DNA from: Ignavibacteriota bacterium
Lineage (GTDB): Bacteria; Bacteroidota; Ignavibacteria; CAWHAG01
Direction of reading: 5' to 3'
NCBI GenBank assembly: GCA_963827285.1
Contig: CAWHAG010000001.1
Span: forward strand, 274,682-338,681
DNA: 64,000 nucleotides
Position 1 is the stretch's first letter, and the number at the start of each line of letters is the position of its first letter. Shown piece by piece: positions 1 to 25,383 of the stretch. The notes under the pieces are model-generated. The model searched no databases. It worked only from the letters and a program-made list of their open reading frames with translations, and was not told where the DNA came from. Position numbers and translations under genes: made by a program.

Positions 1-728
1 AACACATCTATGCCCACATCCCGCTGAATGATCTCCGCGTAGTGTCGAAGTGCTCTATCAAGCAATTCAACGTCCCGCGGTATTGCTCCTTTCTGAGGTG
101 CATAGACGAACGATGCGCCTCCAGAGCCACAGAGCTTGTTCGTAACGTCTGTCGCACCGATGATTTCAATGTTGTGGATTCTCTTGTCAATGTCCGAAAT
201 ATCCATACGTGCAAGATCGAGGAGTGTGGCACCACCTTGCTGAAGCTCACGACCGTGTGAGTCAAGCAATTGTACCCCTAATGCTTAAGCCATGCCGGCA
301 CCGCCGTCATTAGTCGCACTTCCTCCGAGTCCAACAATGATTCTCTTCACACGCTGATCCATTGCAGCACGGATAAGTTGGCCGACACCGTATGTGGTCG
401 TAACCTTTGGATCTCGCTTTTCAAGTGGAACGAGCGTGATACCCGCTGCTGCCGCCATTTCAATCACCGCTGTCGTTCCATCGCCCAGGACTCCCCAGGT
501 TGCCTTTACCTTCTGATAGGGTAGAGGTCCCGAGACCTCCGACTCATAGAAGGTTCCGTTCGAGGCAGAGATGAGCGCGTCCACCGTGCCCTCACCGCCA
601 TCGGCAATCGGAAGAGCAAGAACTTCTGCGATGGGGAGTGCTTTCTCCACTGCTTGGGTCATGATGTCAGCGGCTTTCCGGGCTGTGAGCGAGCCTTTGA
701 ATGAGTCGGGTGCGACGAGAACAGTCAT
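1..728 (-). pseudogene. glycerate kinase (GlxK/GarK family), interrupted by an in-frame TAA at 285-287; 3' end runs off the window
   Basis: ORF 285-728 begins MTVLVAPDSFKGSL...LPIADGGEGTVDA...GLGGSATNDGGAGMA, typical glycerate kinase. The same frame continues past the stop as ALGVQLLDSHG...GATDVTNKLCGSGGASFVYAPQKGA... down to position 3. The stop sits where the family has a conserved Gln (CAA vs TAA). Confidence 0.6.
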
Positions 729-1038
729 GGGTGTCAGGTTACATGGGTATCAGGTTACAGAGGTCAGATTTCAGTTGGAGGTTGACCAAAAAGATCACAA
801 ATTGTCACCCCGAAGTTGTTTCGGGGTCTGAAAACAGCCCAGAACAGATGCTGAAACAAGTTCAGCATGACAACAGTCATGCATTCGTTTACTTTCTGTT
901 CAACCTCTTACCCTGTTTAACTGAAAGATAAGCATTTCCAGAATCTTCCTCAATGGAAAAATGATTTGTGAATCTGCGCCTTTTTTTGTAGATTGAGACA
1001 GTCGAATATCCAACGAGCATTATTCTCAGGGGAACAGT

Positions 1039-1819
1039 ATGATTGACATCGCCATCCAAGCTGCTCGAGAGGCAGGCAAGTTCTTGAAAGCCAATCTCGG
1101 CAAGGTCAGGAATATCGAACACAAACGGGAAGAAATCAATCTCGTTACAGAAGTTGACAGGAAATCCGAAGCGATCATCATTGATATGATCAGACAGCAT
1201 TACCCGCACCATGATATCTTAGCCGAGGAGACTGGAAGTCATAACAAGGCATCAGACTTCAAGTGGATCATTGACCCACTCGATGGCACAACGAACTACA
1301 CACATGGACTGCCTATCTATGGCGTGTCCATTGGACTTGAGAAGCGCGGGGAGATCATTCTTGGCGTTGTGTATAATCCTAATCTTGATGAATTGTTCGT
1401 TGCCGAGAAAGGGGGCGGTGCATTCCTGAATCATCGGCGCATCAAGGTTTCTGAGACCAAAGAGTTTATCAAGAGCCTCTTGATAACGGGGTTCCCTTAC
1501 AGTGTAAAAGAGAATCCCGGCAACTGTATCGAGCACTTCAATAATTTCCTGGTCTCAGCGCGGGCAGTCCGTCGCCTTGGCTCGGCATCGTTGGACATGT
1601 GCTACCTCGCCTGCGGGCGCTTCGATGGATTCTGGGAAGTGTTCTTGAATCCCTGGGATTCTGCTGCTGGGTATCTGATGATTCTTGAGGCGGGAGGAAA
1701 GGTCACCGATTTCGCTGGCAGACCATACAGCATCTATTCAGAAGCCGATATTAGCGAGCAACGGTAGAATTCATGAGCAGATGATGGAGATATTGAGAAA
1801 GGGAAATGTTGGTCAATAA
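1039..1819 (+). CDS. inositol monophosphatase family protein (SuhB-like) with apparent frameshift near the C-terminus
   Basis: 242-aa ORF with IMPase motifs (LAEETG, WIIDPLDGTTNY, WDSAAG). ORF stops at 1767 (…SEADISEQR*), but the +1 frame from about 1742 reads ILASNGRIHEQMMEILRKGNVGQ* ending at 1819, the canonical IMPase C-terminus. Confidence 0.75.
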
Positions 1820-2000
1820 GTCTGGATTTTGACAGCGATGTTCTCTTATGCGCTTATCAGAGGTTACCGAGGCGGGCACGGACCACCCCCATACCCGTGC
1901 GGTAAAGCCGGCACGATGGCGCCGATTACACCACAGGGCTGTGGACAGTGCAAGCCTGTATAAAGTATCGAATGGATTGTCCGGAGAAAGCGCGATGATG

Positions 2001-3206
2001 TTACGCCGCCTTTCGCCTTACCAACCTAATCCTAAACGTTGTCCCTTTTCCAATCGTGCTTTCTTTCACGAAGAGCTTGCCCTTGTGATAATTCTCGATG
2101 ATGCGTTTCGAGAGGCTCAAGCCTAATCCCCAGCCACGTTTCTTCGTGCTGAATCCTGGACGGAAAATATCCTTTTTGTACTTCATCTCAATTCCTTTGC
2201 CAGTATCGGTCACATCAATGTAAGTCACGTTCCCTCTCTGAGACAGCGAAAAGGTTATTTTCCCTTGCCCATTCTCGATTGCATCTAAAGCGTTCTTCAC
2301 CAAGTTTTCCAGCACCCATTCAAAGAGTTCACAGTTGATCATCGCCGTGTACTGCTCTGATGTAGCTGCGGTGATTTCAACTCTCTTTCCCATCTGAGGA
2401 AGTCGTCGTTCAAAATAGCGAATGATGTTCTGAACAACGTCATTGAGATTCTCTTCCTTCAGAACTGGCTTCGAGCCGATTTTTGAAAAACGAGACGCGA
2501 TCTTGTTCAGCCGGTTGACGTCGTTCTCAAGCTCCTGTATCGTTTCCATGAGCCTCCCATCACTGCCAGCGTTCCCTTTGAGGATTTCAACCCATCCCAT
2601 CAAACTGGAAAGCGGTGTTCCGAGTTGGTGAGCTGTCTCCCGCGCCATCCCAACCCAGATATTGCTTTGCTCACTCCTCTTGATGTAGCTGAATCCGATG
2701 TAGCCGATGAAGATGAGCAATCCACCAAGAACAATCTCAACGTAGGGTAGCCACCGAAGTCGCGTGACAAGTGTTGACTCGCCATAGTGGACATAATTGA
2801 TCACAGTATCTTGATGGGCAACTTTTATAGGAGTATGGTCTCGATCCATCGCGGGGATAAGACTGGCAACATATTCCCCTTTCTTGTTTTCATCCCAAGA
2901 GGAATCTACATCAACGTTTTTATATGAAATAACCACGTGGTTTGAGGCATCGCTCAGAATAAGCGGGAGATCAATCTTCACCGTGTTTTCCTGAACGATT
3001 TCCTGAAAGATGAAACCGAATTCGGCACTTGGTGTCTCCTCGTTGGCAATGAATTGCAGGGATTTGGCGTAGAGGTCAGCGATCTCCCGTTCGCGTTTCT
3101 GTAACTTCTCTACAATGGTTTGTGTGTACCACAGCGTCCCAATAATGATCGCAACGGCGATGACTACTAGTGCAGCTTTGATGTTGATAGATATTGGACC
3201 TTTCAT
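2001..3206 (-). CDS. sensor histidine kinase (two N-terminal TM helices, HisKA + HATPase_c)
   Basis: 401 aa; ETAHQLGTPLSSLMGW H-box; C-terminal DTGKGI...GWGLGLSL ATPase motifs. Confidence 0.8.
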   Translation of the reverse strand: MKGPISINIKAALVVIAVAIIIGTLWYTQTIVEKLQKREREIADLYAKSLQFIANEETPSAEFGFIFQEIVQENTVKIDLPLILSDASNHVVISYKNVDVDSSWDENKKGEYVASLIPAMDRDHTPIKVAHQDTVINYVHYGESTLVTRLRWLPYVEIVLGGLLIFIGYIGFSYIKRSEQSNIWVGMARETAHQLGTPLSSLMGWVEILKGNAGSDGRLMETIQELENDVNRLNKIASRFSKIGSKPVLKEENLNDVVQNIIRYFERRLPQMGKRVEITAATSEQYTAMINCELFEWVLENLVKNALDAIENGQGKITFSLSQRGNVTYIDVTDTGKGIEMKYKKDIFRPGFSTKKRGWGLGLSLSKRIIENYHKGKLFVKESTIGKGTTFRIRLVRRKAA

Positions 3207-3281
3207 AGAATCCTCTCCTCAATGTGATAGGGGAATATACTCAATTACCCTCATCGAGGCTATCCAAAAAATTTTCCCCTG

Positions 3282-5165
3282 CTACTTCTCACTGCTTTGT
3301 TGGAAGAACTTCTTTATCCCTCTGTAAATCGCTCCAGCGACTCTTCTCTGAAATGCCCCGTTCATCAGAAGAGCCTCTTGCTTTGGAAGAATGATGAACG
3401 CTGGCTCGACAAGGACAGAAATTGTCTCGTGAATGCGGCACATATACAGATTGTCCCAGTAGAGTCCGAAGTTCGGGAGTTTCAACTCCCTCGTGATTGC
3501 CTCTTGAATATCATAGGCTAAGGGATATGCCTGAGGATGATAGTAGTAAGTGCTGCTGCCGTTCCACACACGTGGGTCAACGCCATCGGGAACAGCATTG
3601 TTGTGAATGCTGATCATAATGTCAGGATGATAACTGACTACCACAGGTCGCCGCTGGCGTAAAGGAAGCGGATCAGTTGTGTGAGTAAGGTACACTTTTG
3701 CACCACTTTGTTCCAACAGCCTCTTGAGATCCAATGAGATTTTAAGATTGACATCCTTCTCCAGTGTCCCCCTTGGTCCAATGGCACCGGGATCAGGAGT
3801 GTGTCCGGGATCAAGGCAGATGGTACGCCCCTTCAGAACATTTCTCCCTGAACCGAGTTTCGGTGGACGCTTGATGTCCAGCAACAGGTTTGTCCCATCG
3901 TATCTCACCGTATAACCCCACTGTTGTTTCCCATTCAGATTGATCACAACCTGCATCATATCATTCTGCAGTTGTGACCACGTGATGTCTCGGATAGTCC
4001 TATCGCCAAAGTCATGGCGGATCCAGTCAAGGTCGGAAACGACACCGTAGAGGGTCAAGACCAGTCGTTGTGGATCAGTTGATTGCCCAATCTTGTAAGG
4101 GAGTCTTTCATGCAGTGCAAACTTCACTTCCACTTTGTCGGCGTACCCTTCTGTTCTAATGATCTCCAAGGTGCTGCGAGGTGGGGGAGTTCCCATAGGA
4201 AGCTCCTTCGTAGCATTCTTTGGAACCCAGATGTCTTCCGTGGGAGCAATTTTGAGTCGTGTCCAGTCGCCCTTTTTCCCGGTAGCAACTGCCTTCACTC
4301 CTCGCGGTATGAAAAGGTTGTAGCCAAGCTCCGCACCGGTGCGGGCGATGGTCATACTGTCTGAGAATTCGACCACACGAAGGATCGTGGAATTGTCAAC
4401 GGAGAGTTTTCCTTTCGCTTCTTTAGAAAGCTCACCAAGTTCTTCATGCTTCAGATGGAAAATAATCTTCGCACCAATGAGAGCGGTATCCGGCAAAAGA
4501 TAATGTCCTCTGTAGATTCCTTGAATAGTATCACCAGTAGCCTTTGCACCGCTGCCGAACACCGCCTCACCCCAATAGTAGTTGTCCACCATGCTGGTCT
4601 CTGTCATCGGAATGTTTCGTATCACTCCCTCGATGTCGAATGAAGCCGCACAGTGTGGCGTTCCTTTGAACTCAACGGTGAAGGCTTCGTGAGGACTGAG
4701 AACCACATTATCATCAGGCTGCATTGAGTAGGTCGTATCAATTAGCAGCGTATCACGGCGAGAGGTTTTGAGCGGCACAGGAGCAAAGGCGTAAACAACG
4801 AGCGTATCCTCCTTCCCATTAAATCGCGCGATGCAGGTGAATCGCACATTTACAGTAACAGTGTCTTGACCGGATATGATTTGTTTTTCTTTGTCAAGAA
4901 AGATTATAGGGGCAAGAGCGAGAAATGCACCATCCATCTCGACCTTTGCCTCTATGCCATTGACACATACTTTTGCCGATGGTGGAGAGACAGTTCCAAT
5001 GGCAAATGTTGGCGCTTTGGAATAGGAGATCCTCTCGCGCTCATTAGGATAGACAACTGTGAGCTTGATACTCTGGGAATTCGGGACTCCGTCGTGAGGT
5101 TCAGCCCGAAGGGTTGCTGACACCAGCAGACAAACAGATGCGAAGAAGAGACTTCTCATGAGCAT
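3282..5165 (-). CDS. N-acetylmuramoyl-L-alanine amidase (Amidase_3 C-terminal domain, large N-terminal extension)
   Basis: 627 aa with signal peptide; C-terminal ICLDPGHTPDPGAIG...ISIHNNA...AFIILPKQEALL matches Amidase_3. Confidence 0.75.
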   Translation of the reverse strand: MLMRSLFFASVCLLVSATLRAEPHDGVPNSQSIKLTVVYPNERERISYSKAPTFAIGTVSPPSAKVCVNGIEAKVEMDGAFLALAPIIFLDKEKQIISGQDTVTVNVRFTCIARFNGKEDTLVVYAFAPVPLKTSRRDTLLIDTTYSMQPDDNVVLSPHEAFTVEFKGTPHCAASFDIEGVIRNIPMTETSMVDNYYWGEAVFGSGAKATGDTIQGIYRGHYLLPDTALIGAKIIFHLKHEELGELSKEAKGKLSVDNSTILRVVEFSDSMTIARTGAELGYNLFIPRGVKAVATGKKGDWTRLKIAPTEDIWVPKNATKELPMGTPPPRSTLEIIRTEGYADKVEVKFALHERLPYKIGQSTDPQRLVLTLYGVVSDLDWIRHDFGDRTIRDITWSQLQNDMMQVVINLNGKQQWGYTVRYDGTNLLLDIKRPPKLGSGRNVLKGRTICLDPGHTPDPGAIGPRGTLEKDVNLKISLDLKRLLEQSGAKVYLTHTTDPLPLRQRRPVVVSYHPDIMISIHNNAVPDGVDPRVWNGSSTYYYHPQAYPLAYDIQEAITRELKLPNFGLYWDNLYMCRIHETISVLVEPAFIILPKQEALLMNGAFQRRVAGAIYRGIKKFFQQSSEK

Positions 5166-5204
5166 AAGGTTTCATTACAGGAGATATTGAGGAGCAACTA
5201 TGAA

Positions 5205-5834
5205 TTAGAGTTCCATCGCTTCATTGACGATGCGAAGGATATCTTCCGTCAGCGTTTGAATCCTAGATGTCGCTGATTGCATCTCCGCTAGCATCTGTGC
5301 GCTGAAGTCTCTGTCGCTTATTGAGCTGAGATTGATCCACACATTCAAGGCGGCGCTTTCGCTAGCAGCTCTCAACATCAAGGCAGCAACTCCTGCATCA
5401 CTGATCGAATTCTGGTTTCCTTTCTGTGCTACTACCTTGGTGAGTTCCAGCATACGAGCGCAGTCGCTCATAACTTCCATTGGCACTATTGCCGCCTGTT
5501 TCGTTGCCTGTTCTACAGCATCGCGTCGCACTTGTTTCTGTGAATCAGTATCCTTCGGTAAACCGTAAGCGCCCATCACCTTGTTGAAGGCTTCGGTGTC
5601 TTTGTCAATCAACTCAATGAAGATTCTTCTCAATTCTTCTGACGCTTTCAGCACGTCGGAGATCTCCTCGGTTACCTCAAGATACTTCTTTTTTCCAATG
5701 GTGAGATTACACACCATGGAGGTCAGTGCTGCACCGAGTGCCCCTAACAATGCGGCTACGCTGCCTCCGCCTGGAGCGGGTGAGTTAGAGGCGAGTTCGT
5801 TGAGAAAATCATTGACGGTCCTATCTACAAGCAT
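5205..5834 (-). CDS. formimidoyltetrahydrofolate cyclodeaminase (FTCD C-domain / cyclodeaminase-cyclohydrolase family)
   Basis: Motif NDFLNELASNSPAPGGGSVAALLGALGAAL. Start taken at internal Met (MLVDRTVNDF); track ORF extends to 5894. Confidence 0.75.
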   Translation of the reverse strand: MLVDRTVNDFLNELASNSPAPGGGSVAALLGALGAALTSMVCNLTIGKKKYLEVTEEISDVLKASEELRRIFIELIDKDTEAFNKVMGAYGLPKDTDSQKQVRRDAVEQATKQAAIVPMEVMSDCARMLELTKVVAQKGNQNSISDAGVAALMLRAASESAALNVWINLSSISDRDFSAQMLAEMQSATSRIQTLTEDILRIVNEAMEL

Positions 5835-6010
5835 AAGGGTTTCTCCAGAAACTGCAGTGTATGATGTTGAGTTCAGCGATTCTGATTTGACCAAATCAGA
5901 TTAGGATCAGTCGCGAGCAACACGGGATTACAGTTTGGGGATTGTGGATTACGGACTGATTCGAGATCTCTGGCCATTACGAAATCTAGAACGGGCAAGC
6001 TAATTTCGAT

Positions 6011-7045: not shown

Positions 7046-7093
7046 TGGTTCTCCTTTAGAAAGTGTTGTAGATCACGGGTTGGAGCTTGCCTC

Positions 7094-8347: not shown

Positions 8348-8367
8348 CTTATTATTTATCGGATGAA

Positions 8368-8682
8368 TCAATTGAGTGAAAACTCTGTGATTTGAGAAGA
8401 GACATTGTAGTTCTTGATAGCTGATCCGTAGCCGTACTTCAGCGCTAGATTGTATCCGTACGTCTCGTGAAAACGGGACCAACCTATCGCGGAATATGGT
8501 AGGAGTCCCGCGTATCTCTCTTTTGAGATGTATTCATCACGCACAGCAAGCCAACCTATCCCCCCGTGCACGCCAATGCCTTCCGAAAAGGCGGTTTGGT
8601 GATTTAATGAATCCTGGCTGTGTAGAATGGTGGTAATCAAAGGAATGAAACAAGGGATTAGAACTAACGAAGAAGTTTTCAT
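8368..8682 (-). CDS. hypothetical small secreted protein (signal peptide, Tyr/Gly-rich C-terminus)
   Basis: ORF 8368-8706; MKTSSLVLIPCFIPLITTILHSQ signal-like N-terminus; no recognisable family. Confidence 0.3.
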   Translation of the reverse strand: MKTSSLVLIPCFIPLITTILHSQDSLNHQTAFSEGIGVHGGIGWLAVRDEYISKERYAGLLPYSAIGWSRFHETYGYNLALKYGYGSAIKNYNVSSQITEFSLN

Positions 8683-9129
8683 TTTCGTGTGGAAACTTTG
8701 TATCATTCGTCAGTTGTTCTACTGTTGCGAGGACGAACAAATCGGTTTGCTTTGTTCGTGGATAATGAAACCATGCAGTATGTCGTTTCAAGTGTAAGAA
8801 TTTTTGTTATCTTTGTCAAGTCTTTTCTATGTGCTCGCGTGGAGTGAAGGCTGCTAGTTCATAGCTTCCATCGGGGAACGGAAGGGAAACCTCTTACCAC
8901 TGCGTGAAGGCGCCGGCACAACTATCGTCCTAGCCATCTCTGGATGACCATGATAAGAGAATCCGTTATTTGTGTCCTTTTGACTTGATTATGACGACTA
9001 ATAATGTTAGATTGTAATGTGCAATTATCGCTGACTACGCGCGATGGAGATGTGAGATGTTTTCGGTGCCTTCTACTGAATTAAATCTAGACTGCTAATT
9101 CCTTCTTGCTTGACATCCTTGGTTGCTTC

Positions 9130-10362: not shown

Positions 10363-10387
10363 GCTCTAGGTTTGGCAGCAAAAAAGC

Positions 10388-14275: not shown

Positions 14276-14845
14276 TTGCCTCTGTGAGCTTTTTCTACCG
14301 GCTATCGTCCTCTGGTGCTTCCTCCTCCTCGGCTGCCCCCACTGCTTCCGCCCCCGCCACTTCCACCCCGACTTCCTCCACCGCTTCCTCCTCTGGTACC
14401 TCCACTGCTACTTGGTGGGGGAGAGTAACTTGGTGAGGATGATTAAGCCGGAGGAGTATAACTCGATGGCGTAGCTCCTGATTTCGGAGAACTTGACGAT
14501 TGTGACGAAGGATGCGAATTGGTGCGTGTCCTGCTCCTTCCGCTCTCTGTCCTGGGACGAATGCTGGGCACCGGCACGGGTTTCAGTTCATTGGGGACAA
14601 CGTATTTGCTTTTGCCTTTAGGATTATCATCTCTTGTGCTTCCGCCTCTCGATTTACTATCTCTCGAACTTCCGCCTCGTGTATTGCCTTGACCTCGTGT
14701 CCCGCTTCCACCCTGGTTGCCTTCAACTCGTGTTCCTCCTCCAGCACGGTCAGCGCCGACGGTCGGATTCCGGTCTGTTCCAGTGCGAGTTCTGTCTGTA
14801 CCCGCTGCACCGCGGGTCGTGCTTTCCTTCGTTGTGCTTTCGGTT

Positions 14846-15415
14846 CTAGTTCCCGTAGCCGATGGTGGATTGAAGGAAGAAACCTGCTCCACCGGTAGAT
14901 ACGCCCCGCGTTGAACCAGCGCCACGAGTTGAACCAAAGTCTCTCGTCCTTGAGCGATCCTTGTTATAACCGTAGTAAGTGCCGTAGTAGTAGGGATTAT
15001 AGTCGCCGTAGTAACCCCCGTAGTAGTAATTCCCGTAAGGGTAATACCACCCAGGACTGTAGCCGCCGTAGTACCACCATGGATGCCAATACCAATCGGG
15101 GTACCAGTACGAACTCGACCAATAGTAATTGCCCCCGTACCAATCATCGTAAGATGGGTCGAACCAATAGGAGGACGGATAATAGAACCGGAAGTAGAAC
15201 CTATGACGAGGGTAGCCATAGAAGTAATAGTTGTTGACAACATTGCCGCGCGCCGTATCCGTAGAGGCGTAGGTGCTATCTTGGTCATAGTATTCATTGG
15301 AGTAACTCTCGTCTGACCTCATAGTGGCGACTTGTGTGTAGCAGCCTGAGATCAGCAGACCCATCCCCAGAAGTCCGATCAGTAGAGTTAGTGTTGCTTT
15401 CGCCTTTCTGTTCAT
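14846..15415 (-). CDS. paralogous Tyr/Trp/Gly-rich lipoprotein (lipobox ISGC); apparent frameshift, tail probably continues to 14443
   Basis: MNRKAKATLTLLIGLLGMGLLISGCYT...; extreme aromatic stretch (YYWSSSYWYPDWYWHPWWYYGGY...). The S/T/R/G-rich tail continues in another frame (ORF 14443-15297, C-terminal part), mirroring the tail of the 13577-14275 paralog. Confidence 0.6.
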   Translation of the reverse strand: MNRKAKATLTLLIGLLGMGLLISGCYTQVATMRSDESYSNEYYDQDSTYASTDTARGNVVNNYYFYGYPRHRFYFRFYYPSSYWFDPSYDDWYGGNYYWSSSYWYPDWYWHPWWYYGGYSPGWYYPYGNYYYGGYYGDYNPYYYGTYYGYNKDRSRTRDFGSTRGAGSTRGVSTGGAGFFLQSTIGYGN

Positions 15416-15824: not shown

Positions 15825-16725
15825 CTAACGGTGTTCTCGTTCCGATAGTGCACTTGCTTTTAGGTAATCCCGAAAATTCCTGTGTCCATCAACCACCTCA
15901 TTGTGTTGAAGGTTGGTGTAGAGGAAAACAAGCCGATGCTTTCGCAGATCCTCTGGTGTCACATCTGCTTCTTTTCTCGCAAGATGCGGAATGCCCCAAC
16001 TCTCCAAATCAGAGATCAATGCTTCGGTCTCGTCCTTTGTCCCGCCATCCTTTGTGTAAATGCTGATAAGTTTGCCGTTGTGATGATCAAGCCAGTACAC
16101 GTACTTTTCCGTTTGTCCGTAAAGTGCGTCGAACAGAAACACCTCTTTGATATGATCAGTTAATCCACCACGCATGAGGATAAAGGAAATAACGTGATAG
16201 CCCCCACTATGACCCGAGAGGATGATGTCCCCTATTTGCCTGCTTGTCGTTTTCTTCTGCTGAAAGAGCCACTCGATAATATCACTCATAAACCTCTCGA
16301 ATCCTTCTGGATCTTCCAGTTTGCCACCGAACGAATCGGGAGAGTTGCGAGGTCCCTGAGGGAACGATCAAGATGGCGTTTTTCTCACTCTCACTGAACT
16401 GCTCGATGAGCTGAAAACGACGCAACACACTGTCAACATTGTTCCACCAACCATGGAAGTGAACGGCGAAGTCAACTCTTTCTGTCTGCCTATACCCTTT
16501 CGGAATGAACATTGCTACGCTGCTGTCGTTGTAGTGTTTATCGGCCGGATAGATCACGTTGTCATATTTGTGTCCTTCAGCTCGTTTTGGATGAGGAAAT
16601 GGTGCGGAAGAAAGCTGCGTAATGATTAGCTCACCGAACTGGGTATATCGTTGATCTGGATTTTGGGCCTGCAGAGCGACTGCTGTTGAAAGCATTGGAG
16701 CGAGTAGTAGTGAAAGTTTATTCAT
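15825..16725 (-). pseudogene. alpha/beta-hydrolase (esterase-like, GHSGG nucleophile elbow) split by a frameshift near 16355-16368
   Basis: ORF 16282-16725 (signal peptide...AVHFHGWWNN...NAILIVP) and ORF 15825-16289 (MSDIIEWL...IGDIILSGHSGGYHV...) are adjacent. The frame of the second reads back as ...QGPRNSPDSFGGKLEDPEGFERF-MSDIIEWL, joining the first after ILIVP. Confidence 0.65.
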
Positions 16726-16832
16726 AAATCATGATGGTGCGTGTTAGAGAGAGTTGTGGTCACTCATATGAAGACGAAAGCAAGTAGCGAGATCCTTTTG
16801 TTTCTCGCTTCTCGTCTCCTGTAAATGCAGAA

Positions 16833-16910
16833 GTGAGCGCCTGTCGCTTGCAGCGCCATCTGGAGCAAGACATAGACTCACAATCTTGCGCCATGGCGCC
16901 GAAGGCGCTC
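16833..16910. repeat. conserved intergenic element, copy 1 (GCGCCATGGCGC palindrome plus AGATGGCGCTGCAAGCGACAGGCGCTCAC core)
   Basis: A 29-nt block GTGAGCGCCTGTCGCTTGCAGCGCCATCT here is identical to the reverse complement of 62689-62717; both copies also carry GCGCCATGGCGC. Confidence 0.6.
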
Positions 16911-17037
16911 ATTCGATTTGGTGCCAGGAGGCTTTAGCATCACATCGTGGCACTCCGTGCCACTTCTGATTTCCATCTTCCTCATTGTAGGAAGAAGAAT
17001 GTCTTACCACGCCACTTTCAAGCTAGTCCAGAAGATT

Positions 17038-20000
17038 CTATTCCGTAATGTCCAGGCTCACCTCGTTAGCATTTCCTCTTACCTCTGGATAATACATCAG
17101 CGAGGCAAGCGATGGCATCACGTGGTAGTTTCCAGGAATCTGTGCACGAACGATGTAAGTAAAGGCATGTTCACCTGAATAGAAATATCGTGCAAAGAAC
17201 GCGACTTTCTCATCTCGCACGTCTCGCTCTTCCCACCACCATCGCCATCCATAATACTCGCCGCCGCTGTAGCCATCCTCATCTGCAATCTTGTATCCAT
17301 CTGTTTTCCGAATCACCTCGCAGCCTGAGGGCAGTGGATCTTCGAGCATGAAATATTCATAGTTGTCGTCAGAGTAAATGTGCAACTTTACGAAGATCTC
17401 GTCTCCTGACTTCACGGTCCCAGTGAAGGGCTGTTTCACATAGACGATCTCCTCACTCCTTCTCTGCTTCACAAGTTTGAAATACTCCCTTGTTACTTTG
17501 AATCCGGCACTCTTCGGCTGGATGTTTTCATCTGCTGAGTAATACATCACCCGGGAGGTGAAGTAAAGTTTCCCGTCGCCGTATTTTTCCACCCGAATCC
17601 GGTTTTCACCCTGCCTGAGCGAACGCCCGTTCACCTTCACGCGCGCCTCTTTAGAGAACACATCATCCTGTGTGACTTTCTTCTCCATGACCATCTGGTC
17701 ATTCACATACACTTTCGTTAGATAGTTCGGCTGAAGCTCCTTGCTGTTCTTCAAATAGTCCGCCAAGGCAAAGATGATGATTGCTGTCTGTCGCGTCGAG
17801 TTCCATGAGAACCCGTGCCGCTGACTCAATAGCCAGTGCACGCCCTTCCTGATGAGGTCGCTGTTGCCCTTCATTTCAATCAATGCCTTGAGTGCAAAGG
17901 CGGTGGTTTCAACAGCGTCGTCCTGCCAGTTGTAGTGCCAACTCTTGCCTGTCCAGTAAATCGCCGTTCCGGTGCTGGTAGTGCCGGCCTCCAGTTGATT
18001 AACAAGTGTCATCGCCGTCGCCTTGTCGCCTTGATGGTAACTTGCTAATGCCAGGAGCGACCGTGCATAGTTGTTAATACCCCTCGTATCGAACCGTGCC
18101 AACTGACCATCAATGATGGACTTCTCCAAAACCTTCTCTTGCTCATTGGCGAACGTCATCACGTAGATCACATACGCATGTGTCGTGGGGTCAAGTTTCA
18201 CTGTGCTCTCCAGGTGTCCCTTCAAGTTCCAGATCCCTTTCGAAATCACATTTTCAGGAATCTCGTAGTTGGCGCGCTTTGCAAGTGAGAGACCATAGAC
18301 GACGTATGCTGTCATAAACGGGTCAGACTGATCGTTTTCCCACCAGCCCCATCCTCCGTCTTCATGCTGGAAGTTGTAAAGTCGCTTCAAGCCTTTCTCC
18401 ACCATCTTCGGGATCTCTTTTTTCACATCCTCCGCTAATGGCACATTCAAGTCGCGCATCGTGTTTGCCACGATGACTGTTGGCAGGAATCTGCTCATTG
18501 TCTGCTCAACGCAGCCATAAGGATAACCTATCAAATCGTCAAGTGCACCAAGTATGCTCGAGGCAAGCGATGGAGAGATACTGACGTAGAACTGTGCGCT
18601 GCTCAAATCCACAGCTTGCGGGATATTCACGGTTGCTGTCTTGACCTCCCGATTTGCATCAATATCAATCACCTGCGCCTCCGCGATCTGCAATCCATGA
18701 GGCAACACCGGTACTTTCACTTCCATCGCATCGGATTCCTCGTTGGTGAGTGCCTTGGCTAACAGCTTGGCTTCACCAGGGCTGGAGGTTCTCACCTTCC
18801 AATCAATCTTCACCTCACCATTTCTTGGAACAGTTATGATCTTCTCAGTCCCCTCAACGTTAAGATTGGTTGCCGACAAACTGACTTTCGTTTGTTTGTC
18901 TTCGCTGAGGTAATTGTGCACGATGGTCGCAATCAGCAGTTCATCTTTCTGCATGAAGAATCTCGGCGTCTCCATCCGAACTATCAAGTTCTTGCGTGCA
19001 ATGACTCTGCTGATTTCACTGCCAACTTCCGTTTCTCTGGTCATGGCGCGAACGGTTGCTCGCCAGGTCGTCAAGTTGTCTGGATACTTCACTTGTACTT
19101 TGGCAATGCCGTTCCCATCCGTCACAAGTGTTGGCTGCCACAGCATCATATCCTTGAACTCTCGACGAGTCGCCGGTTCCATGAAGAGTTGCCCCTTGAC
19201 ATCACCAAGAGCGATGCGCTCTCGCTCCGATCTTGTTGCCATCAGTGGAGCTGCTTCACCCGCCTTCTTGTTGTCAGAGTATTCTTCTTTCCTCAGACCT
19301 CGAGAATAGCCGTAGAAGTTGAAGAACAGCGATGATGATGTCTGGACGGAGTTGTATCGTATGTTGTAGAAGAACTTTTTGATGTCCGTCGTTCTCTCGG
19401 GCGAGATCGCATACACGCTTTCGTCCACCACACCGACGGAGACTTCCGCATTGCGTACCGATCTACCGTTTTCGTCAGTGACCTTCACCGTCAACTCACC
19501 TTGATCCTGCGGCTTGTAGGTCTGCTTGTCATTCAGAATTTCGACGTTGAGAAACTTCTCCTGCGGGATAATGAGCACTCGCTTGCTCTGATTGTAAAAG
19601 TTGTCATTGAAGAGAGTCGAAACAGAGAGGTATATATTTGGACGATAGTTATCTTTCAATTTCACATCAATCACTTTAGAAACCCCATCAAATCGTTCGA
19701 CGTTCTGATCAAGAATGTCCTCACCTTCAACGGTCACCAGTGCGTCAATTCCAGAAGTCGGCAGCACGATCAGAGCATGCATTGTCTCGCCGGCAGTGTA
19801 ACTGTCTTTGTCGGGAATTATTTGAATCTTTGCGGATTCCTCCCCCCAGTACGCGTAGTAACGCTCGTCTGTGACATAAAGATAGCTGGTCTCATCAATG
19901 TAGTTGTTGCGCGAATCCCTTGCACTGACGACCAAGCGATAGTAGCCGTTCTCCTGTACTGAGAAGTTCACTGTGCCGCTGCCATCACGATTCGTCGCGC

Positions 20001-21840
20001 TGCTTAGAGTCATCACTTCCTGCTCGTGATGCTGATAGTTGTATCGCTTTACATTGTTATCCCAGTATTCTGTTCTATCCCACCACTGTCGGATGACCTT
20101 GACAGCGAAGTTTGCCATCACACCATTTTCCTTGAAATCTGCGATTCGTACCTTGAGTCGAACATCTTCCTTCGGCTTATAGACGTATTTATCCGTCTGC
20201 GAGGAAATATAGAACAGCCCTCGTGTCACCTCCACGCTCTTGGCACCTGAGATCGCCCTTCGGCTGTTATCTATGACATTCGCTTGAATGCGATAGACGT
20301 AGTCTTCTCTTGCCTTGACATCGGTATAGTAGGTGAGTTCGAACCTTCCGTTGTTGTCAACTTTCCCCGTGCCGCTATCGAGCAGTTCCTGACGATAGGT
20401 GTAATACTCTTCATCTTCTTCGTAATACCACGCATAATCTGTTCCCTTCCACCACGGACGCCAGTAGCGACTGCGATAGATATAATACTCAACGTCGGCG
20501 TTCGTCACAGGGCTACCAAAGTAATAGTCCGCCTTGACGGTCGCCTTGATAACATCACCTTTCGCGTAATGATCCTTGTCGAATGCAACTTCAACTTTGT
20601 ATTCTGGCTTCTTATATTCCTGGACTTCGAAGTTGTTAGTGTAAGTCCTATTCTCGACAACGGTTTGGATGTTGTAGAAACCCAGTGGTGGTTCCTCGGC
20701 AAGTCTCAGACTCCCATGGAAACTTCCAAACTCGTTTGTCTTCATTGAGTCTTTGTAGACGACACTGCCTCTCGAATCGGTGACGGTAATCTTCACAAGT
20801 TGATTTGGGAAATTCACCAACTGTCCTTCATCGTCTTTCTTTCTTACAATACCTTTGAAGAAGACATCCTGTCCTGGACGATACACGGGACGCTCGGTAT
20901 AGACGTACACATAATACCCCTGTTCTCTATCATAGGAGTAGTAATAAGGATCGGAGATGACAAGGTTTCCATCCTTGATACCCATTATCAGAATATTGCC
21001 GCCGCCGTATTCCCAGTCGAACTCTTCACCTTCCTCTTCAGTCGGAGTTGCTTGCTCTTTCTTTTCTATCGTTAGTGTATAGAGTCCTTTCTTGTCAGTT
21101 GTTCCTTTCCCAATCTTCTTATTCTTTTCATAGAAGGACAGTTCAAAGTCAGAAATCGGCTCACCGGTCTTCTTGTCCACGACATACGCAACCAATTTGG
21201 TTCCAGACCGTTTTGTGACCATCCCACACTTTGAGATCACCAGCATGGTGTAGGCAACTTTGTCAAGAGCTCTGCCCTCGACGAGATAGACACCAGCCTC
21301 TTTGATGTCTGCTCGCACCGTCTGGTAGTTCCACCATTCCTTTGTTTTGATAATCTGCTCCGTCCACTCCTTCACGATCTTGTAGCCCTCGAGTTCTTTG
21401 GGAACTTTCTGTTGCTCTTCAGCTGCCTTCTTTTCCTCCGCTTTTTCTATTCCTGCCATATCGCGGATGTTCACCCGGCTTTCGGCTTTCATGTAGGCGC
21501 GGGCAATCTGCCGAGCATCTCGCTGGATTTTGTTAGCAGCTTCACCGAAGATTTTGAAGATACTCGTCTCGTTGAGGCTTCTGAGATCTGGATGGTGCGG
21601 ATTCCTTTGCTTTTGGAAGAATTTGACAGGGTCGTCAATCTGATACACCCGAAGCTTAATGGTTCCTGAAAGATTATATGTCTCGAGTTGGAACGTGACC
21701 TCATCGCCGGGTGAGAACACTTTCGAGGTTGATAGGTAGAAGCTGTAATCTTTGTCCGCCACTCTCATGGCTGAAAGGAACAGGAGAGCAAACAGCGCAA
21801 GTGGCAGAACAACTCCTCTACGACTGATGATCTGTTTCAT
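17038..21840 (-). CDS. alpha-2-macroglobulin family protein (bacterial A2M, thioester-containing)
   Basis: 1600 aa, signal peptide; thioester motif YPYGCVEQT (CxEQ); size and architecture typical of bacterial A2M. Confidence 0.85.
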   Translation of the reverse strand: MKQIISRRGVVLPLALFALLFLSAMRVADKDYSFYLSTSKVFSPGDEVTFQLETYNLSGTIKLRVYQIDDPVKFFQKQRNPHHPDLRSLNETSIFKIFGEAANKIQRDARQIARAYMKAESRVNIRDMAGIEKAEEKKAAEEQQKVPKELEGYKIVKEWTEQIIKTKEWWNYQTVRADIKEAGVYLVEGRALDKVAYTMLVISKCGMVTKRSGTKLVAYVVDKKTGEPISDFELSFYEKNKKIGKGTTDKKGLYTLTIEKKEQATPTEEEGEEFDWEYGGGNILIMGIKDGNLVISDPYYYSYDREQGYYVYVYTERPVYRPGQDVFFKGIVRKKDDEGQLVNFPNQLVKITVTDSRGSVVYKDSMKTNEFGSFHGSLRLAEEPPLGFYNIQTVVENRTYTNNFEVQEYKKPEYKVEVAFDKDHYAKGDVIKATVKADYYFGSPVTNADVEYYIYRSRYWRPWWKGTDYAWYYEEDEEYYTYRQELLDSGTGKVDNNGRFELTYYTDVKAREDYVYRIQANVIDNSRRAISGAKSVEVTRGLFYISSQTDKYVYKPKEDVRLKVRIADFKENGVMANFAVKVIRQWWDRTEYWDNNVKRYNYQHHEQEVMTLSSATNRDGSGTVNFSVQENGYYRLVVSARDSRNNYIDETSYLYVTDERYYAYWGEESAKIQIIPDKDSYTAGETMHALIVLPTSGIDALVTVEGEDILDQNVERFDGVSKVIDVKLKDNYRPNIYLSVSTLFNDNFYNQSKRVLIIPQEKFLNVEILNDKQTYKPQDQGELTVKVTDENGRSVRNAEVSVGVVDESVYAISPERTTDIKKFFYNIRYNSVQTSSSLFFNFYGYSRGLRKEEYSDNKKAGEAAPLMATRSERERIALGDVKGQLFMEPATRREFKDMMLWQPTLVTDGNGIAKVQVKYPDNLTTWRATVRAMTRETEVGSEISRVIARKNLIVRMETPRFFMQKDELLIATIVHNYLSEDKQTKVSLSATNLNVEGTEKIITVPRNGEVKIDWKVRTSSPGEAKLLAKALTNEESDAMEVKVPVLPHGLQIAEAQVIDIDANREVKTATVNIPQAVDLSSAQFYVSISPSLASSILGALDDLIGYPYGCVEQTMSRFLPTVIVANTMRDLNVPLAEDVKKEIPKMVEKGLKRLYNFQHEDGGWGWWENDQSDPFMTAYVVYGLSLAKRANYEIPENVISKGIWNLKGHLESTVKLDPTTHAYVIYVMTFANEQEKVLEKSIIDGQLARFDTRGINNYARSLLALASYHQGDKATAMTLVNQLEAGTTSTGTAIYWTGKSWHYNWQDDAVETTAFALKALIEMKGNSDLIRKGVHWLLSQRHGFSWNSTRQTAIIIFALADYLKNSKELQPNYLTKVYVNDQMVMEKKVTQDDVFSKEARVKVNGRSLRQGENRIRVEKYGDGKLYFTSRVMYYSADENIQPKSAGFKVTREYFKLVKQRRSEEIVYVKQPFTGTVKSGDEIFVKLHIYSDDNYEYFMLEDPLPSGCEVIRKTDGYKIADEDGYSGGEYYGWRWWWEERDVRDEKVAFFARYFYSGEHAFTYIVRAQIPGNYHVMPSLASLMYYPEVRGNANEVSLDITE

Positions 21841-22222
21841 AAAGCACCTTGGCTTTAGTAGAGTTCATGGCAGTTTCTGTTTTTATACTGGATTTGCAGT
21901 GCGACTTCTAAATCGCTGCTTTAGAAGCGAGATAAATCTTGCGCTACGATCTATCGAAACTTGCTCAACAGAGTAGTGGTTTCTGTCTTGTACACTTGTT
22001 ATATGTCCGTTAAGAAGGTTATGTTCCTAAAGGGGAAGCGAAAAGGCAAGGCACAGTTAGCCAAGGACCTACTATGGGCTGAAGCGTTGTAGGACGAGCT
22101 TCAGCTCGTCGTGCGACATGAATGTCGCGCTTCATCCTTTTCCGCAAAAGGTGTTAATGTCTGAGTTATCCCGGCTTGTCAGGCTTGGGAACTCGCAATG
22201 ACAGGTTCTTTTCCGGTCACCC

Positions 22223-23110
22223 TTATCCCTCAACAAAACAGACGCTATTCCACAATGTATTCTCTCCATCTTTATAGACCGCATACTGGAAGTCCTTTCT
22301 CACACTTGCCGCACCAATTTCCCCTTTCTTGCTTAGAGCGATAACGCCGACCTGAAAATCACGGGTGCCGTTCATCTTGAGCATTCTCTTAATCGCTAGC
22401 TCACACGCTTGTTGCGGAGTCATTCCTTCTCTCATCTTCTCTACGACGAGAAAACTGCTGCATGCTCGTATCACTTGCTCTCCGTTACCTGTTGCTGCGG
22501 CGGCACCAACTTCGTTATCAACATATAGCCCTGCACCGATGATGGGCGAGTCTCCAACACGCCCTCGCTTCTTGAACGCAAGTCCGCTTGTCGTGCAGGC
22601 ACCGGAGAGATTTCCGTCGCTGTCGAGGGCGAGCAGACCAATTGTATCGTGGTCTTCCTCATTTGGCATAGGTGGACGCCAGTTCGCTTTATCGCTAAGG
22701 GCGTTCCAGTCCAACCACCTATTGCGCGCATGTTCCGTCAGCAAGTCTGTTTTCTCGAAGCCGTGAGCCAGTGCAAATTCTAGTGCGCCCTCACCGGCAA
22801 GCATCACGTGTTTGGTCTCCTCCATCACAAGTCGGGCAACAGAAATCGGATTCTTGATATGTTCAAGAAACGCAACGGCACCAGCATTGCCACGCCAGTC
22901 CATAATCGCGGCGTCAAGCGTCACCTGACCGGTTTCATCGGGCATACCGCCGTAACCGACACTCGTCACTGTGGCATCATCCTCTGCGACACGCACCCCC
23001 TGTTCCACCGCGTCAAGTGCACTGCCGCCACTGATGAGCACCTTCCACGCCGCTTCATTTGCCGCAAGACCATGCTTCCAGGTTGATATAACAGTAGGCT
23101 TGTTTTCCAT
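22223..23110 (-). CDS. isoaspartyl peptidase / L-asparaginase (Ntn-hydrolase, plant-type asparaginase family)
   Basis: HDTIGLLALDSDGNLSGACTTSGLAFKKRGRVGDSPIIGAGLYVDNEVGAAAATGNGE matches the asparaginase_2 family. Confidence 0.8.
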   Translation of the reverse strand: MENKPTVISTWKHGLAANEAAWKVLISGGSALDAVEQGVRVAEDDATVTSVGYGGMPDETGQVTLDAAIMDWRGNAGAVAFLEHIKNPISVARLVMEETKHVMLAGEGALEFALAHGFEKTDLLTEHARNRWLDWNALSDKANWRPPMPNEEDHDTIGLLALDSDGNLSGACTTSGLAFKKRGRVGDSPIIGAGLYVDNEVGAAAATGNGEQVIRACSSFLVVEKMREGMTPQQACELAIKRMLKMNGTRDFQVGVIALSKKGEIGAASVRKDFQYAVYKDGENTLWNSVCFVEG

Positions 23111-23113
23111 TCT

Positions 23114-25069
23114 CTATTTGCTGATGATCATTTTGTTTGTTTCAGTGAAACCCTTTGCCGACAGACGATAGAAGTACACACCGCTGGATAGAATGTCGAA
23201 TGTTCCCGCAAAGCGGGATCGAATATCGAATGTCACACGGTAGTTTCCAGGATTTTTTTCTTCATTTACCAAGGTTGCCACTTCTCTTCCAAGCACATCG
23301 AAGACTTTCAGCGTCACGTGTTCGCGCTGTGGAAGTGAGAAACGAATCGTGGTGGCAGGATTGAAGGGATTCGGATAATTTCGTTCAAGCCGATAGCCTT
23401 GCGGCGCCATGGGCAGAGATTCTTTCACGCTTGTGATGGCCGTCGTTGACAGCAAAACCCGAGATGGACAACTCGCATCGTGATAAATACAATTCGTCGC
23501 GACAAGCGTATCGCCTGGTTTGTAAAGAACACCGCCATTATTCAGGTTGATATCAAAACGTGGGTAGTCCGATGAACTCACATCAATCCGCAACTGGTGT
23601 CCCTTCAGAAACGTCATTGCAAGATTTTGCAGTTCAGTCGTCACAGGATATATTTGCCCGGGTGTCATTAAATCTTCCACACTGTACGAATTGCGGAAGC
23701 GCATTCGTCTGATACCAGCCGTCAGAATCATGGAGCGTCCGTCGGGGTACACATCGCACAAACGTACACCGAAGTCTGTATCTTTTCTGTTGGATGACAC
23801 ATAGAGTCGAACTTCTGTTGCTCCGTCCACCATCAAATCATTTTGGAGAACCGGAGTGGTGTACGTGAGAACATCGCTGCGGCTTTCAACACGCTGTCGC
23901 TGGTCGAGCGGTCCACCCTGAACCGACGGGTCAAACGGATTAAATCTCACACCGCCGTAAGAGGGTGTAGGATCGCGCGGATTGTACCTCAACGAATCAG
24001 GTGTGGCACTCTGTGGTGGTGCAGCTCGTGATAACAAGCCGCCCGATTGCAGATACAACGTATCCGTTGCACCGCCGAGCGAATACCAATCGCTTGTTGA
24101 GCGCCATTCATCTGTTCCCATCTGGTAGTAGCGTATAGTCGGGTTTTGGTCGTACCCGCTCTGCATGTTCCGCAGATAGTAATCAAAGAAACGCATTGCT
24201 GCGGTATCAGAGATCCCAACGGCGTTCGGATACTCTAACTCTCCTTGCTTCGATTTTCCTATTTCTGAATGCATCCAGGGACCGATAATGAATTTGTGCT
24301 TCGAGCGAACTGATGGTGCACTTCTCGCTTTAAGATCATGAAAAGCACGAATCACATCATCAGGATAATGGTCGTACCATCCACCAATCAGAAGCATGGG
24401 TACGGCAATCGAATCGGGATAATCCGAACTTGTCTCGAGGAGCCTCCACATCGGATTATATGATGGGTTTGCTAATATGAACTCCGTCGGGAGAAACCCG
24501 AGTCTTTCCATCGTCTCATTGTGTTCCTTCAGGTAATCGCCACCATAATAAAAATTCGAGTACGCAATTTTATAATCTTTCACCAGCGGCATACTGCAGA
24601 CAAGATGCGGCGGATGGTGTTTGGCTGTCTGAAACTGAATGAGACCCAGAGCGGACGGTCCCCACGTACCGACTTTGCCATTGCACCACCGCCGATATGC
24701 TATCCATTCAACGGCATCGTAGCCATCCAAGCCTCTATCGTAGCCGGATACATCCGCATCCTTCGAGCCGTAGAATCCACGCCAATCAACAACTACGCAA
24801 TTGTAATGCACACTGTCGTAAGGAAACGATGAGCCGCCTGCTTCCGGCAGACCAACTCTGATGCGATAATAATTTTTGTTGTATGGTGTCTGGACGAGGA
24901 TGACGGGCTTTGCTGCAGTGGTGTCAAGGGAATATAGATCAGCCGCAAGAACTTTTCCATCACGGGTCGGAATCGTGATGGGAATGTAACGCGCTGTATC
25001 TTGAGCGAACATCCTGGAACCGAGCGTTGTTATAAGACAGACGATCAGATAATAAACTGTGATTTTCAT
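23114..25069 (-). CDS. CocE/NonD-family hydrolase (S15 Xaa-Pro dipeptidyl-peptidase-like) with T9SS C-terminal sorting domain
   Basis: 651 aa, signal peptide; YNCVVVDWRGFYGSKD region; C-terminal ERNYPNPFNPATTIRFSLP...VFDVLGREVATLV...GVYFYRL...KMIISK is a T9SS CTD. Confidence 0.7.
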   Translation of the reverse strand: MKITVYYLIVCLITTLGSRMFAQDTARYIPITIPTRDGKVLAADLYSLDTTAAKPVILVQTPYNKNYYRIRVGLPEAGGSSFPYDSVHYNCVVVDWRGFYGSKDADVSGYDRGLDGYDAVEWIAYRRWCNGKVGTWGPSALGLIQFQTAKHHPPHLVCSMPLVKDYKIAYSNFYYGGDYLKEHNETMERLGFLPTEFILANPSYNPMWRLLETSSDYPDSIAVPMLLIGGWYDHYPDDVIRAFHDLKARSAPSVRSKHKFIIGPWMHSEIGKSKQGELEYPNAVGISDTAAMRFFDYYLRNMQSGYDQNPTIRYYQMGTDEWRSTSDWYSLGGATDTLYLQSGGLLSRAAPPQSATPDSLRYNPRDPTPSYGGVRFNPFDPSVQGGPLDQRQRVESRSDVLTYTTPVLQNDLMVDGATEVRLYVSSNRKDTDFGVRLCDVYPDGRSMILTAGIRRMRFRNSYSVEDLMTPGQIYPVTTELQNLAMTFLKGHQLRIDVSSSDYPRFDINLNNGGVLYKPGDTLVATNCIYHDASCPSRVLLSTTAITSVKESLPMAPQGYRLERNYPNPFNPATTIRFSLPQREHVTLKVFDVLGREVATLVNEEKNPGNYRVTFDIRSRFAGTFDILSSGVYFYRLSAKGFTETNKMIISK

Positions 25070-25383
25070 TCTATCACGACCATTGATTTTTGTTGGACAT
25101 ATTCACCGTCGCGAAGTTGATAAAGATATACACCGCTGGATAGAATGTCGAGTGTCGAATAACGAATGTCGTATGTCGCACGATAGTTCCCAGGACTCTT
25201 TTCTTCACTTACCAGGGTTGCCACTTCTCTGTCCAATACATCAAAGACCTCGAGAGAAACAGATGTAGAATTCGGGACTCGAAATTTGTCATTGGATTGA
25301 AGGGGTTTGGATAGTTCTGGGATAGCCGATGGTTGCTCTCTGTCATCCGTGTGGATAGCACTTCCACGATGGAACTGATTCAA
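25066..25383 (-). pseudogene. orphan T9SS C-terminal-domain remnant (frameshifted, no catalytic domain upstream)
   Basis: ORF encodes ...VSLEVFDVLDREVATLVSEEKSPGNYRATYDIRYSTLDILSSGVYLYQLRDG...; QNYPNPFNP is in a different frame just upstream and preceded by a stop; DNA is clearly related to the 3' end of the adjacent S15 gene (23141-23300). Confidence 0.6.

Follow-up and report, generated by a model that had tools for sequence, protein, structure and literature searches.

The lesions that break genes in the first 25 kb of the window, the 64,000-nt stretch of Ignavibacteriota DNA analysed here, are several phenomena and not a single one. The best explanation, which we consider fairly probable, is that two of the lesions are real remnants of lost genes, three single-base insertions are most likely consensus errors, and two in-frame stop codons may be real, very young nonsense alleles. 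The original prediction offered pseudogenization or assembly indels; both apply, each to different lesions, given that the remnants are real and that the suhB frameshift is contradicted. Overall, this is a matter of annotation quality and of ordinary biology, with nothing new in it, and no old pseudogene, recoding signal or mechanism is present.

Seven lesions were mapped to base level: two are stops, three are +1 insertions and two are deletions that truncate a gene. All five that had been listed before were located in the sequence, with coordinates roughly as originally given, and two more were added, a second lesion of the lipoprotein gene (14443-14445) and a truncated ORF (8368..8706), that are missing from that incomplete list. 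The single-base lesions comprise two CAA-to-TAA stops and the three insertions. For comparison, we relied on a sister population, 95-97% identical to the window, that provides at most four independent contigs per site and covers four of the five point lesions; all four sister contigs end at window position 848, adjoining two hairpins, such that the glycerate kinase stop was compared only with a 76%-identical outgroup. Each of the five point lesions occurs in the window only, and the comparison with a related lineage that had been proposed originally yielded sister contigs free of each of the four lesions that they cover (0/4). Intact relatives with clear homology exist for SuhB, glycerate kinase, the esterase-like protein, the lipoprotein and the ~260-aa family represented by the truncated ORF, and the broken products are recorded solely from one 1.63-Mb NCBI/ENA contig. 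A scan of the genome collection with HutI returned, among the matches listed, 64% identity at best and no synteny for the broken genes, and a JGI metagenome scan with glycerate kinase found no relative above 59%. There were no Rfam matches in the gaps 730-2010 and 29800-30520, and no Pfam matches in six gap ORFs.

Both deletion remnants are judged to be real gene-loss remnants because they recur unchanged in independent contigs from this strain. The first, at 25066..25383 on the reverse strand, is what remains, in chimeric form, of a type IX secretion (T9SS) C-terminal sorting domain (CTD), delineated by a Por_Secre_tail-like match (E = 0.0036, weaker than the Pfam cut-off requires) and by comparison with the sister. 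It has no cargo part, and its weak CTD is internally frameshifted, with the QNYPNPFNP motif in a different frame from the remainder, in agreement with the frameshifted orphan CTD remnant described originally; the sister has a complete 437-aa gene. The 5' part of the remnant derives from an older decayed CTD remnant and the last ~50 nt from the 3' end of the 437-aa T9SS cargo gene still present in the sister. Between the two CTD repeats, which are ~70-80% identical to each other, ~1.3 kb containing one gene is gone, and the junction maps to a shared motif encoding SGVY. Recombination between the two sorting-domain copies would have removed the gene for the secreted 437-aa protein, leaving the orphan CTD behind. 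The second remnant, at 8368..8706 on the reverse strand, corresponds, by family lengths and the sister sequence, to the N-terminus (104-112 aa) of an outer-membrane-like family with a length of ~260 aa. The sister copy is also truncated (138 aa), and the window is short of ~80 nt more; probably, the gene was truncated beforehand and then lost these additional nucleotides. Two contigs from run ERR10755944 reproduce the remnants, the CTD remnant base for base in L001 (13.5 kb, 99.96% identical to the window) and the truncated ORF exactly in L174 (6,994 nt, 100% identical).

The inositol monophosphatase (suhB) gene, in contrast to what its label as a pseudogene implies, is intact in the same strain. 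In the window, this SuhB-like gene (1039..1819, forward strand) does carry the originally predicted frameshift: in the DNA alignment to four sister contigs, there is an extra G at 1744 (GAA-CC to GAAGCC), the last ~32 codons are shifted, and the C-terminus 'PILASNGRIHEQMMEIL' carries on in the +1 frame, with the sister protein intact. However, the repaired 259-aa SuhB is recorded as P0488, letter-for-letter identical to the window product minus G1744, on a 2,523-nt Logan contig that is read-derived and comes from the same strain; the frameshifted 242-aa product is recorded from the 1.63-Mb contig only. An intact frame in reads was originally named as the observation that would turn the pseudogene into an ordinary coding sequence, and this read-derived contig supplies it. 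The dN/dS of suhB is 0.13, similar to that of intact neighbours. Among the point lesions, suhB alone has a demonstrated same-strain intact allele.

The other two insertions are of the same form and, we infer, share the cause of the one in suhB. The second lipoprotein gene (14302..15415, reverse strand; lipobox LISGC), delineated by alignment to the sister, where it is a single intact 377-aa ORF, has one extra base in the run 14880-14882 (TT to TTT on the coding strand) compared with two sister contigs. The esterase-like alpha/beta-hydrolase gene (15825..16725, reverse strand), with a GHSGG motif and delineated by sister alignment and fold, is split by one extra base at 16360-16362 (CC to CCC on the coding strand) compared with four sister contigs. 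Both frameshifts had been predicted and are present in the sequence. The two esterase-like fragments, P0123 and P0124, are recorded from the 1.63-Mb contig only, and the repaired protein has 2071 homologues, mostly of ~295 aa among the matches listed. The label 'esterase' itself stands at the level of the fold, where an AF2 model (pLDDT 70.8) matches esterase D and feruloyl esterases at TM ~0.4, and does not stand at the level of Pfam and NCBIfam, which return no matches to this protein. The protein collection lacks the repaired esterase (299 aa) as well as both repaired forms of the lipoprotein (323 and 370 aa); their absence carries no information, given that the lipoprotein gene may run off the end of the same-strain contig.

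Most likely, the three insertions (1744, 14880-14882 and 16360-16362) are consensus errors that escaped correction; failing that, they would be private variants of very recent origin. The errors would be those of a long-read-type assembly, and a contig that reaches 1.63 Mb and runs through an rRNA operon indicates long reads. Comparison of the window with same-strain contigs reveals single-base indel disagreements in both directions: at position 32499, the S16 gene is out of frame in the Logan contig, and at 24442, its S15 peptidase is in two pieces, and such two-way disagreements look like technical noise. If the insertions are errors, the suhB, lipoprotein and esterase-like genes would be ordinary and intact. 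Each disrupted gene has one or two hits, with the frame remaining open once repaired, and there is no convincing decay of the genes with point lesions, nor a sign of old decay.

Alternatively, all five single-base lesions might be real, very young, strain-private losses of function, with the loss of accessory genes reflecting early genome reduction, which we regard as rather unlikely. In this case, the intact Logan suhB would come from a co-occurring, nearly identical genotype, and P0480, a copy of the histidine kinase next to suhB that is recorded from a contig of equal length (2,523 nt), differs by one residue from that of the window and hence represents a non-identical genotype. However, the same-strain contigs are only ~4 substitutions away from the window in 23 kb, making a real coding frameshift a priori unlikely. 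The direction of the indels also speaks against real mutation: all three are +1 insertions (3/3 against the published 17% insertion share, p ~0.026), given that the single-hit lesions of Salmonella pseudogenes consist of 17% insertions, 41% deletions and 38% stops (PMC2916853). The context of the insertions is more favourable to this alternative. Homopolymers had been singled out as a context to inspect, and the insertions fall in no long one (0/3): two are 2-mers turned into 3-mers, and 1744 lies outside any run. No frameshift was found at any of the 86 coding homopolymers of at least 5 nt counted within the mapped genes (75 of 5 nt, 9 of 6 nt and 2 of 7 nt). Long-read errors usually occur at locations different from these sites. 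The high accuracy of the assembly elsewhere, with 0 differences from L174 over 6,994 nt, likewise tells against errors.

The two stops require separate consideration. The glycerate kinase gene (3..728, reverse strand, identified by translation and the Pfam Gly_kinase domain) is represented by its 5' two-thirds, cut by the start of the window, and contains, as predicted originally, a nonsense codon: an in-frame TAA at 285-287, within the invariant GGAGMA-Q-ALG motif, that replaces a conserved Gln, encoded by CAG in four outgroup contigs. The Gly_kinase match runs unbroken across this codon (profile 1-238/372), and the resulting 147-aa fragment is recorded from the 1.63-Mb NCBI/ENA contig only. 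In the lipoprotein gene, the TAA at 14443-14445 corresponds to CAA in the sister and is followed by 46 more codons in frame that end at a stop common to the sister. We lean slightly toward considering these stops real, very young nonsense alleles. Two nonsense substitutions among five point lesions fit the spectrum of real pseudogenes better than that of indel errors, which also favours the possibility that all five lesions are real (PMC2916853), as does the finding that the window-private substitutions, the two stops and R534C at 23470, are all C-to-T on the coding, leading strand (3/3). Both stops occur as GGCT-TAA. Motif-specific base-calling error was considered as their cause and rejected: the sister GCTCAA is kept in the window at nine aligned sites and altered at one, and GGCTCAA occurs six times in the window. 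The spectrum of window-versus-sister substitutions is symmetric, and therefore, there is no overall damage signature. C-to-T is the commonest natural mutation.

The dN/dS values of the lipoprotein (0.38) and the esterase-like gene (0.32), each resting on 13-17 changes and a low dS, are elevated compared with 0.08-0.19 in intact neighbours (Fisher p = 0.004), as would be expected if these genes were truly broken, but the elevation coincides with a dS of 0.05-0.08, and low dS inflates dN/dS. Eight amino acid changes in the esterase-like protein are window-derived and four are sister-derived. The distribution of the point lesions between lineages, five in the window and none in the sister, with the glycerate kinase stop polarised by the outgroup only, also weighs against five genuine inactivations. 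In their favour are the two proven gene losses within the same 25 kb and the sparing of core housekeeping genes (translation, tRNA modification and secretion; 0 hits), together with the lipoprotein as the one gene hit twice; moreover, real pseudogenes are for the most part confined to one strain and carry a single lesion (PMC2916853). Less probable still, in our assessment, is an extension of this reading to all seven lesions, under which an Ignavibacteria-like lineage with a chromosome contig of 1.63 Mb would be in early, active genome reduction. Young strain-private inactivations would then affect many accessory genes and still be segregating, and the private frameshifts of other contigs of the species would belong to the same process.

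The concentration of the lesions was originally read as an unusual cluster that affects the trust in every call within this stretch. No similar disruptions were found after 25.4 kb, as had been stated: among the 20 ORFs scanned there, 18 have Pfam domain matches fitting intact genes and two have no match, in a check that is less sensitive than the sister comparison used for the first 25 kb. With a boundary picked post hoc, 6/18 against 0/20 disrupted loci gives Fisher p = 0.007 and 4/18 against 0/20 gives p = 0.04, and with the same proviso, the confinement of all five point lesions to the initial 22.5 kb out of 53.5 kb of coding sequence gives p = 0.013. Nominally significant at p ~0.01-0.04, with the boundary set after the data had been seen, the clustering is only suggestive, and its reading as unusual was statistically weak. 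Gene content explains it in part, with accessory genes first and housekeeping genes later. The possibility that a single technical cause, a mis-assembled, low-coverage or badly polished block at ~1-17 kb, accounts for the stops and even the remnants, along with the insertions, seems to us very unlikely. It would account for the confinement of the point lesions to 17 kb, with none found later, and for the contradiction of suhB by an independent contig. However, positions 3372-10365, in the middle of this block, are 100.000% identical to an independent assembly (6,994 nt, 0 differences), and therefore, there is no generally untrustworthy block. Furthermore, both deletion remnants recur in independent same-strain contigs, five errors in 17 kb are far below the expectation for a consensus of few noisy reads, and the base composition is unremarkable throughout. 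The 'cluster' is best explained as a coincidence of three different things within a stretch of accessory genes.

Expression of the disrupted genes by programmed recoding, that is, via +1 ribosomal frameshifting and decoding of TAA as glutamine, is extremely improbable. Both in-frame TAAs do replace Gln codons, and the esterase site reads GTT-CCC-T, CCC-N being a known +1-prone context. However, the shifts are present in none of the relatives, each gene being an ordinary uninterrupted ORF in the sister and the outgroup; judging from the sequence, +1 tRNA re-pairing is impossible at two of the three sites (GAA-G and GGT-T). As for the stops, TAA is the terminator of 11 out of 33 ordinary genes across the window, among them cysS, adk, rlmN and the gene for S16, CAA-to-TAA is the commonest one-step path to a stop codon, and the window encodes no suppressor tRNAs. 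With the shift sites unconserved and TAA an ordinary terminator, neither programmed frameshifting nor stop-codon reassignment is tenable.

These assignments have direct consequences for annotation. Probably, the suhB, lipoprotein and esterase-like hydrolase genes deserve annotation as intact genes with a sequence error, in place of pseudogene labels, whereas the orphan CTD and the 104-aa ORF are real remnants. More generally, a dense run of 'pseudogenes' in one long-read contig can be divided, even when no reads are at hand, into those that are real and those that are doubtful, by searching independent read-derived assemblies for the exact repaired protein. Should all the lesions turn out to be real, the genome would be a candidate for reductive evolution at an early stage within a free-living phylum, which would be of moderate interest.

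Comparison with known systems places the lesions among several familiar classes. They resemble young strain-specific pseudogenes (Kuo & Ochman 2010, PMC2916853) in being private, with one or two hits per gene, little extra divergence and a mixture of stops with small indels, and in striking only genes that seem dispensable; unlike those, which are dominated by deletions, the indels here are all insertions, an independent same-strain assembly contradicts one lesion, and the density (4/18 genes) far exceeds that of typical free-living genomes. The gene-fragmenting indel errors of long-read assemblies (for example, PMC12007338 and PMC9262707) are similar in that single-base indels split otherwise conserved genes, in a very long contig across an rRNA operon, with a second assembly that differs at one site; the present case departs from them in that the sites lie outside long homopolymers, two of the lesions are substitutions, and the remainder is 99.96-100% identical to independent contigs. 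Frameshifting of the prfB type has in common with the insertions one extra base per site and the need for a +1 shift to restore the frame, but here, the sites are unconserved in relatives, and the slippery/stop context is missing at two of the three. Finally, the orphan CTD is comparable to the products of gene deletion via direct repeats, in that it is chimeric and the intervening ~1.3 kb, with one gene, is gone. The repeats involved in such a deletion here differ in being only ~70-80% identical, and therefore, the event would have been either a recombination between diverged repeats or one at microhomology.

All five gene disruptions that the original prediction placed in the first 25 kb were recovered by translation, Pfam matching and alignment to relatives, and two further lesions were added. 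In cluster look-ups, every tested window protein, broken fragments included, traces to one NCBI/ENA contig, 1,630,525 bp long; the lesions therefore belong to the deposited assembly and are no artefact of cutting the window. The deposited contig, at 1.63 Mb, implies a long-read origin. The stretch is chromosomal, has a G+C content of ~49% and includes a whole rRNA operon (50924-56466). Among the matches listed in a genome-collection scan, the best relatives of the imidazolonepropionase-like HutI lie in Ignavibacteria/Bacteroidota metagenome-assembled genomes and reach 64% identity at most.

The references are read-derived, independently assembled Logan contigs and one JGI metagenome. A sister population at 95-97% DNA identity (Logan runs SRR29366189, 192, 193, 204 and 205, together with the JGI metagenome) covers window positions 848-5084 and 6600-25583; an outgroup, four contigs at 76% identity, covers glycerate kinase and suhB; and two contigs from run ERR10755944, L001 and L174, represent the same strain. 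L001 matches window 21397-34928 at 99.96%, L174 is identical to 3372-10365 over 6,994 nt, and only ~4 substitutions over 23 kb set the same-strain contigs apart from the window. Logan contigs carry private single-base homopolymer indels (L001 at window 32499 and 24442, L083 at 11351, L086 at 5030) that shift the frame of an S16 gene or split S15 peptidase or amidase genes, all intact elsewhere; at roughly one per 7-10 kb, such indels preclude the use of these contigs as error-free references. Across window 848-25139, neighboring genes differ more than 10-fold in their synonymous divergence from the sister (0.03 in SpoIIE and 0.05 in the lipoprotein vs 0.41 in the amidase and 0.38 in the asparaginase), a spread that indicates a recombination mosaic between the two lineages.

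Both remnants are real. The orphan type IX secretion (T9SS) C-terminal sorting domain (CTD) at 25066-25383 matches Por_Secre_tail weakly, with its N-terminal motif in another frame. Between cysS and the S15 peptidase, the sister carries two elements, an old CTD remnant in decay and, after it, a full-length gene for a 437-aa secreted protein that has a CTD of its own; the window tracks the old remnant up to an SGVY-encoding motif and then switches to the last ~50-60 nt of the 437-aa gene, so ~1.3 kb was deleted between the two CTD repeats. L001 carries the same sequence identically. The truncated ORF at 8368-8706, absent from the original prediction, retains the first 104-112 residues of a ~260-aa family; the truncation already exists in the sister (138 aa), a further ~80 nt have been lost in the window, and L174 reproduces the ORF exactly.

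Among the five point lesions, suhB (1039-1819) alone allowed a decisive same-strain test. The window has one extra G at 1744 compared to four sister contigs, and its removal yields a 259-aa translation that matches verbatim the collection protein P0488, encoded on a 2,523-nt Logan contig; P0480, a copy of the histidine kinase one residue off that of the window, is also recorded from a 2,523-nt Logan contig. Exact restoration of a frame is not something an error would produce; the intact allele is therefore real. With only ~4 substitutions in 23 kb between same-strain contigs and the window, a genuine coding frameshift is unlikely and a consensus error is favored: this insertion is very probably an artefact. 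The proposed interpretation, pseudogenization or assembly indels, is partly supported: each applies to different lesions, the remnants being reproduced in the same strain and the suhB frameshift contradicted there.

The other point lesions were judged against more distant relatives. In glycerate kinase (3-728, minus strand), a TAA at 285-287 lies within the GGAGMA-Q-ALG motif; the Pfam match continues across it, and the codon is CAG in all four outgroup contigs, which alone polarize this stop. The second lipoprotein gene (14302-15415) contains an extra base at 14880-14882 and, not previously listed, a TAA at 14443-14445 that is CAA in the sister and is followed by 46 further in-frame codons up to a stop common to both. 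The esterase-like gene (15825-16725) has an extra base at 16360-16362. The latter two insertions were assessed against two to four sister contigs, and each is probably an artefact; for the two stop codons, a real mutation is slightly the better reading. All five point lesions are private to the window, the sister contigs lacking the four that they cover, and repair opens every gene throughout in the ancestral frame. Recoding was rejected, given that no relative shares the shifts, +1 re-pairing is impossible at two of the three sites, and TAA terminates 11 of 33 genes; comparison of the GGCT-C-AA motif between window and sister ruled out motif-specific base-calling error.

The repaired esterase-like protein has 2071 family matches, mostly ~295 aa among those listed, in Ignavibacteria, Bacteroidota and Marinimicrobia, with an invariant GHSGG; no Pfam or NCBIfam model was found, and its AF2 model, of moderate confidence, resembles esterase D and feruloyl esterases. 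Tandem paralogues occur in three pairs: Tyr/Trp-rich lipoproteins with Ser/Thr/Arg/Gly-rich tails (13577-15415), S8 peptidases that bear T9SS sorting domains (38735-44867) and amino-acid permeases (47313-50407). The 23S rRNA match (53186-56268) is 3,083 nt long for a model of 2,925 positions, leaving ~150 nt extra, possibly an intervening sequence.

Sister loci (L083, L084, L086, L087) contain 20-30-nt palindromic hairpin inserts (e.g., TAAGCCAGAGGCTTATGAGCCTTTGGCTCA) absent from the window (equivalent positions 21823, 14284 and 3223), which resemble a REP-like mobile element of small size; one 30-nt in-frame insert lies in the alpha-2-macroglobulin signal-peptide region (1610 aa vs 1600 aa in the window). 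Two adjoining hairpins, CCCCGAAGTTGTTTCGGGG and ATGCTGAAACAAGTTCAGCAT, separate glycerate kinase from suhB at 800-865, and all four sister contigs stop there, exactly at 848-849; such shared ends suggest that the repeat is multi-copy. Where suhB and the histidine kinase gene converge, 1812-2005 holds ~157 nt more than the sister; this region had no Rfam match, its single tested gap ORF (1848-2126) had no Pfam match, and the window contains no other copy of it. The 677-nt gene-free gap that separates rplS from a T9SS cargo gene (29823-30499), identical in the same-strain contig, gave no convincing Rfam or Pfam match.

The lesions cluster at nominal p-values of 0.007-0.04, for a boundary picked after the data were seen, and the sister reference available for the first 25 kb made detection more sensitive there. 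That part encodes amidases, histidine-utilization (Hut) enzymes, lipoproteins, alpha-2-macroglobulin and secreted peptidases, and the next stretch cysS, recN, rplS, trmD, rimM, rpsP, ffh, rlmN, adk, surE and pfk. Midway through the cluster, 7 kb match perfectly, which rules out a generally bad block. Against artefact stand the otherwise near-perfect assembly, the lack of lesions in core housekeeping genes, the absence of insertions from long homopolymers (none of 86 coding runs of at least 5 nt, all within mapped genes, is frameshifted) and the two nonsense substitutions, both C-to-T, as is the one other window-private substitution, the non-synonymous R534C (CGT to TGT) at 23470 in the S15 peptidase, where the same-strain contig and the sister have CGT. 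Raised dN/dS in the lipoprotein (0.38) and the esterase-like gene (0.32), vs 0.08-0.19 in intact neighbors, points the same way, on small counts and at low dS. Overall, the content is ordinary, combining real small-scale gene loss with probable assembly errors. The artefact reading draws on the long-read origin of the contig, on single-base indel disagreements with same-strain contigs in both directions and on all three indels being insertions, an outcome with p ~0.026 under the spectrum of Salmonella pseudogenes (PMC2916853).
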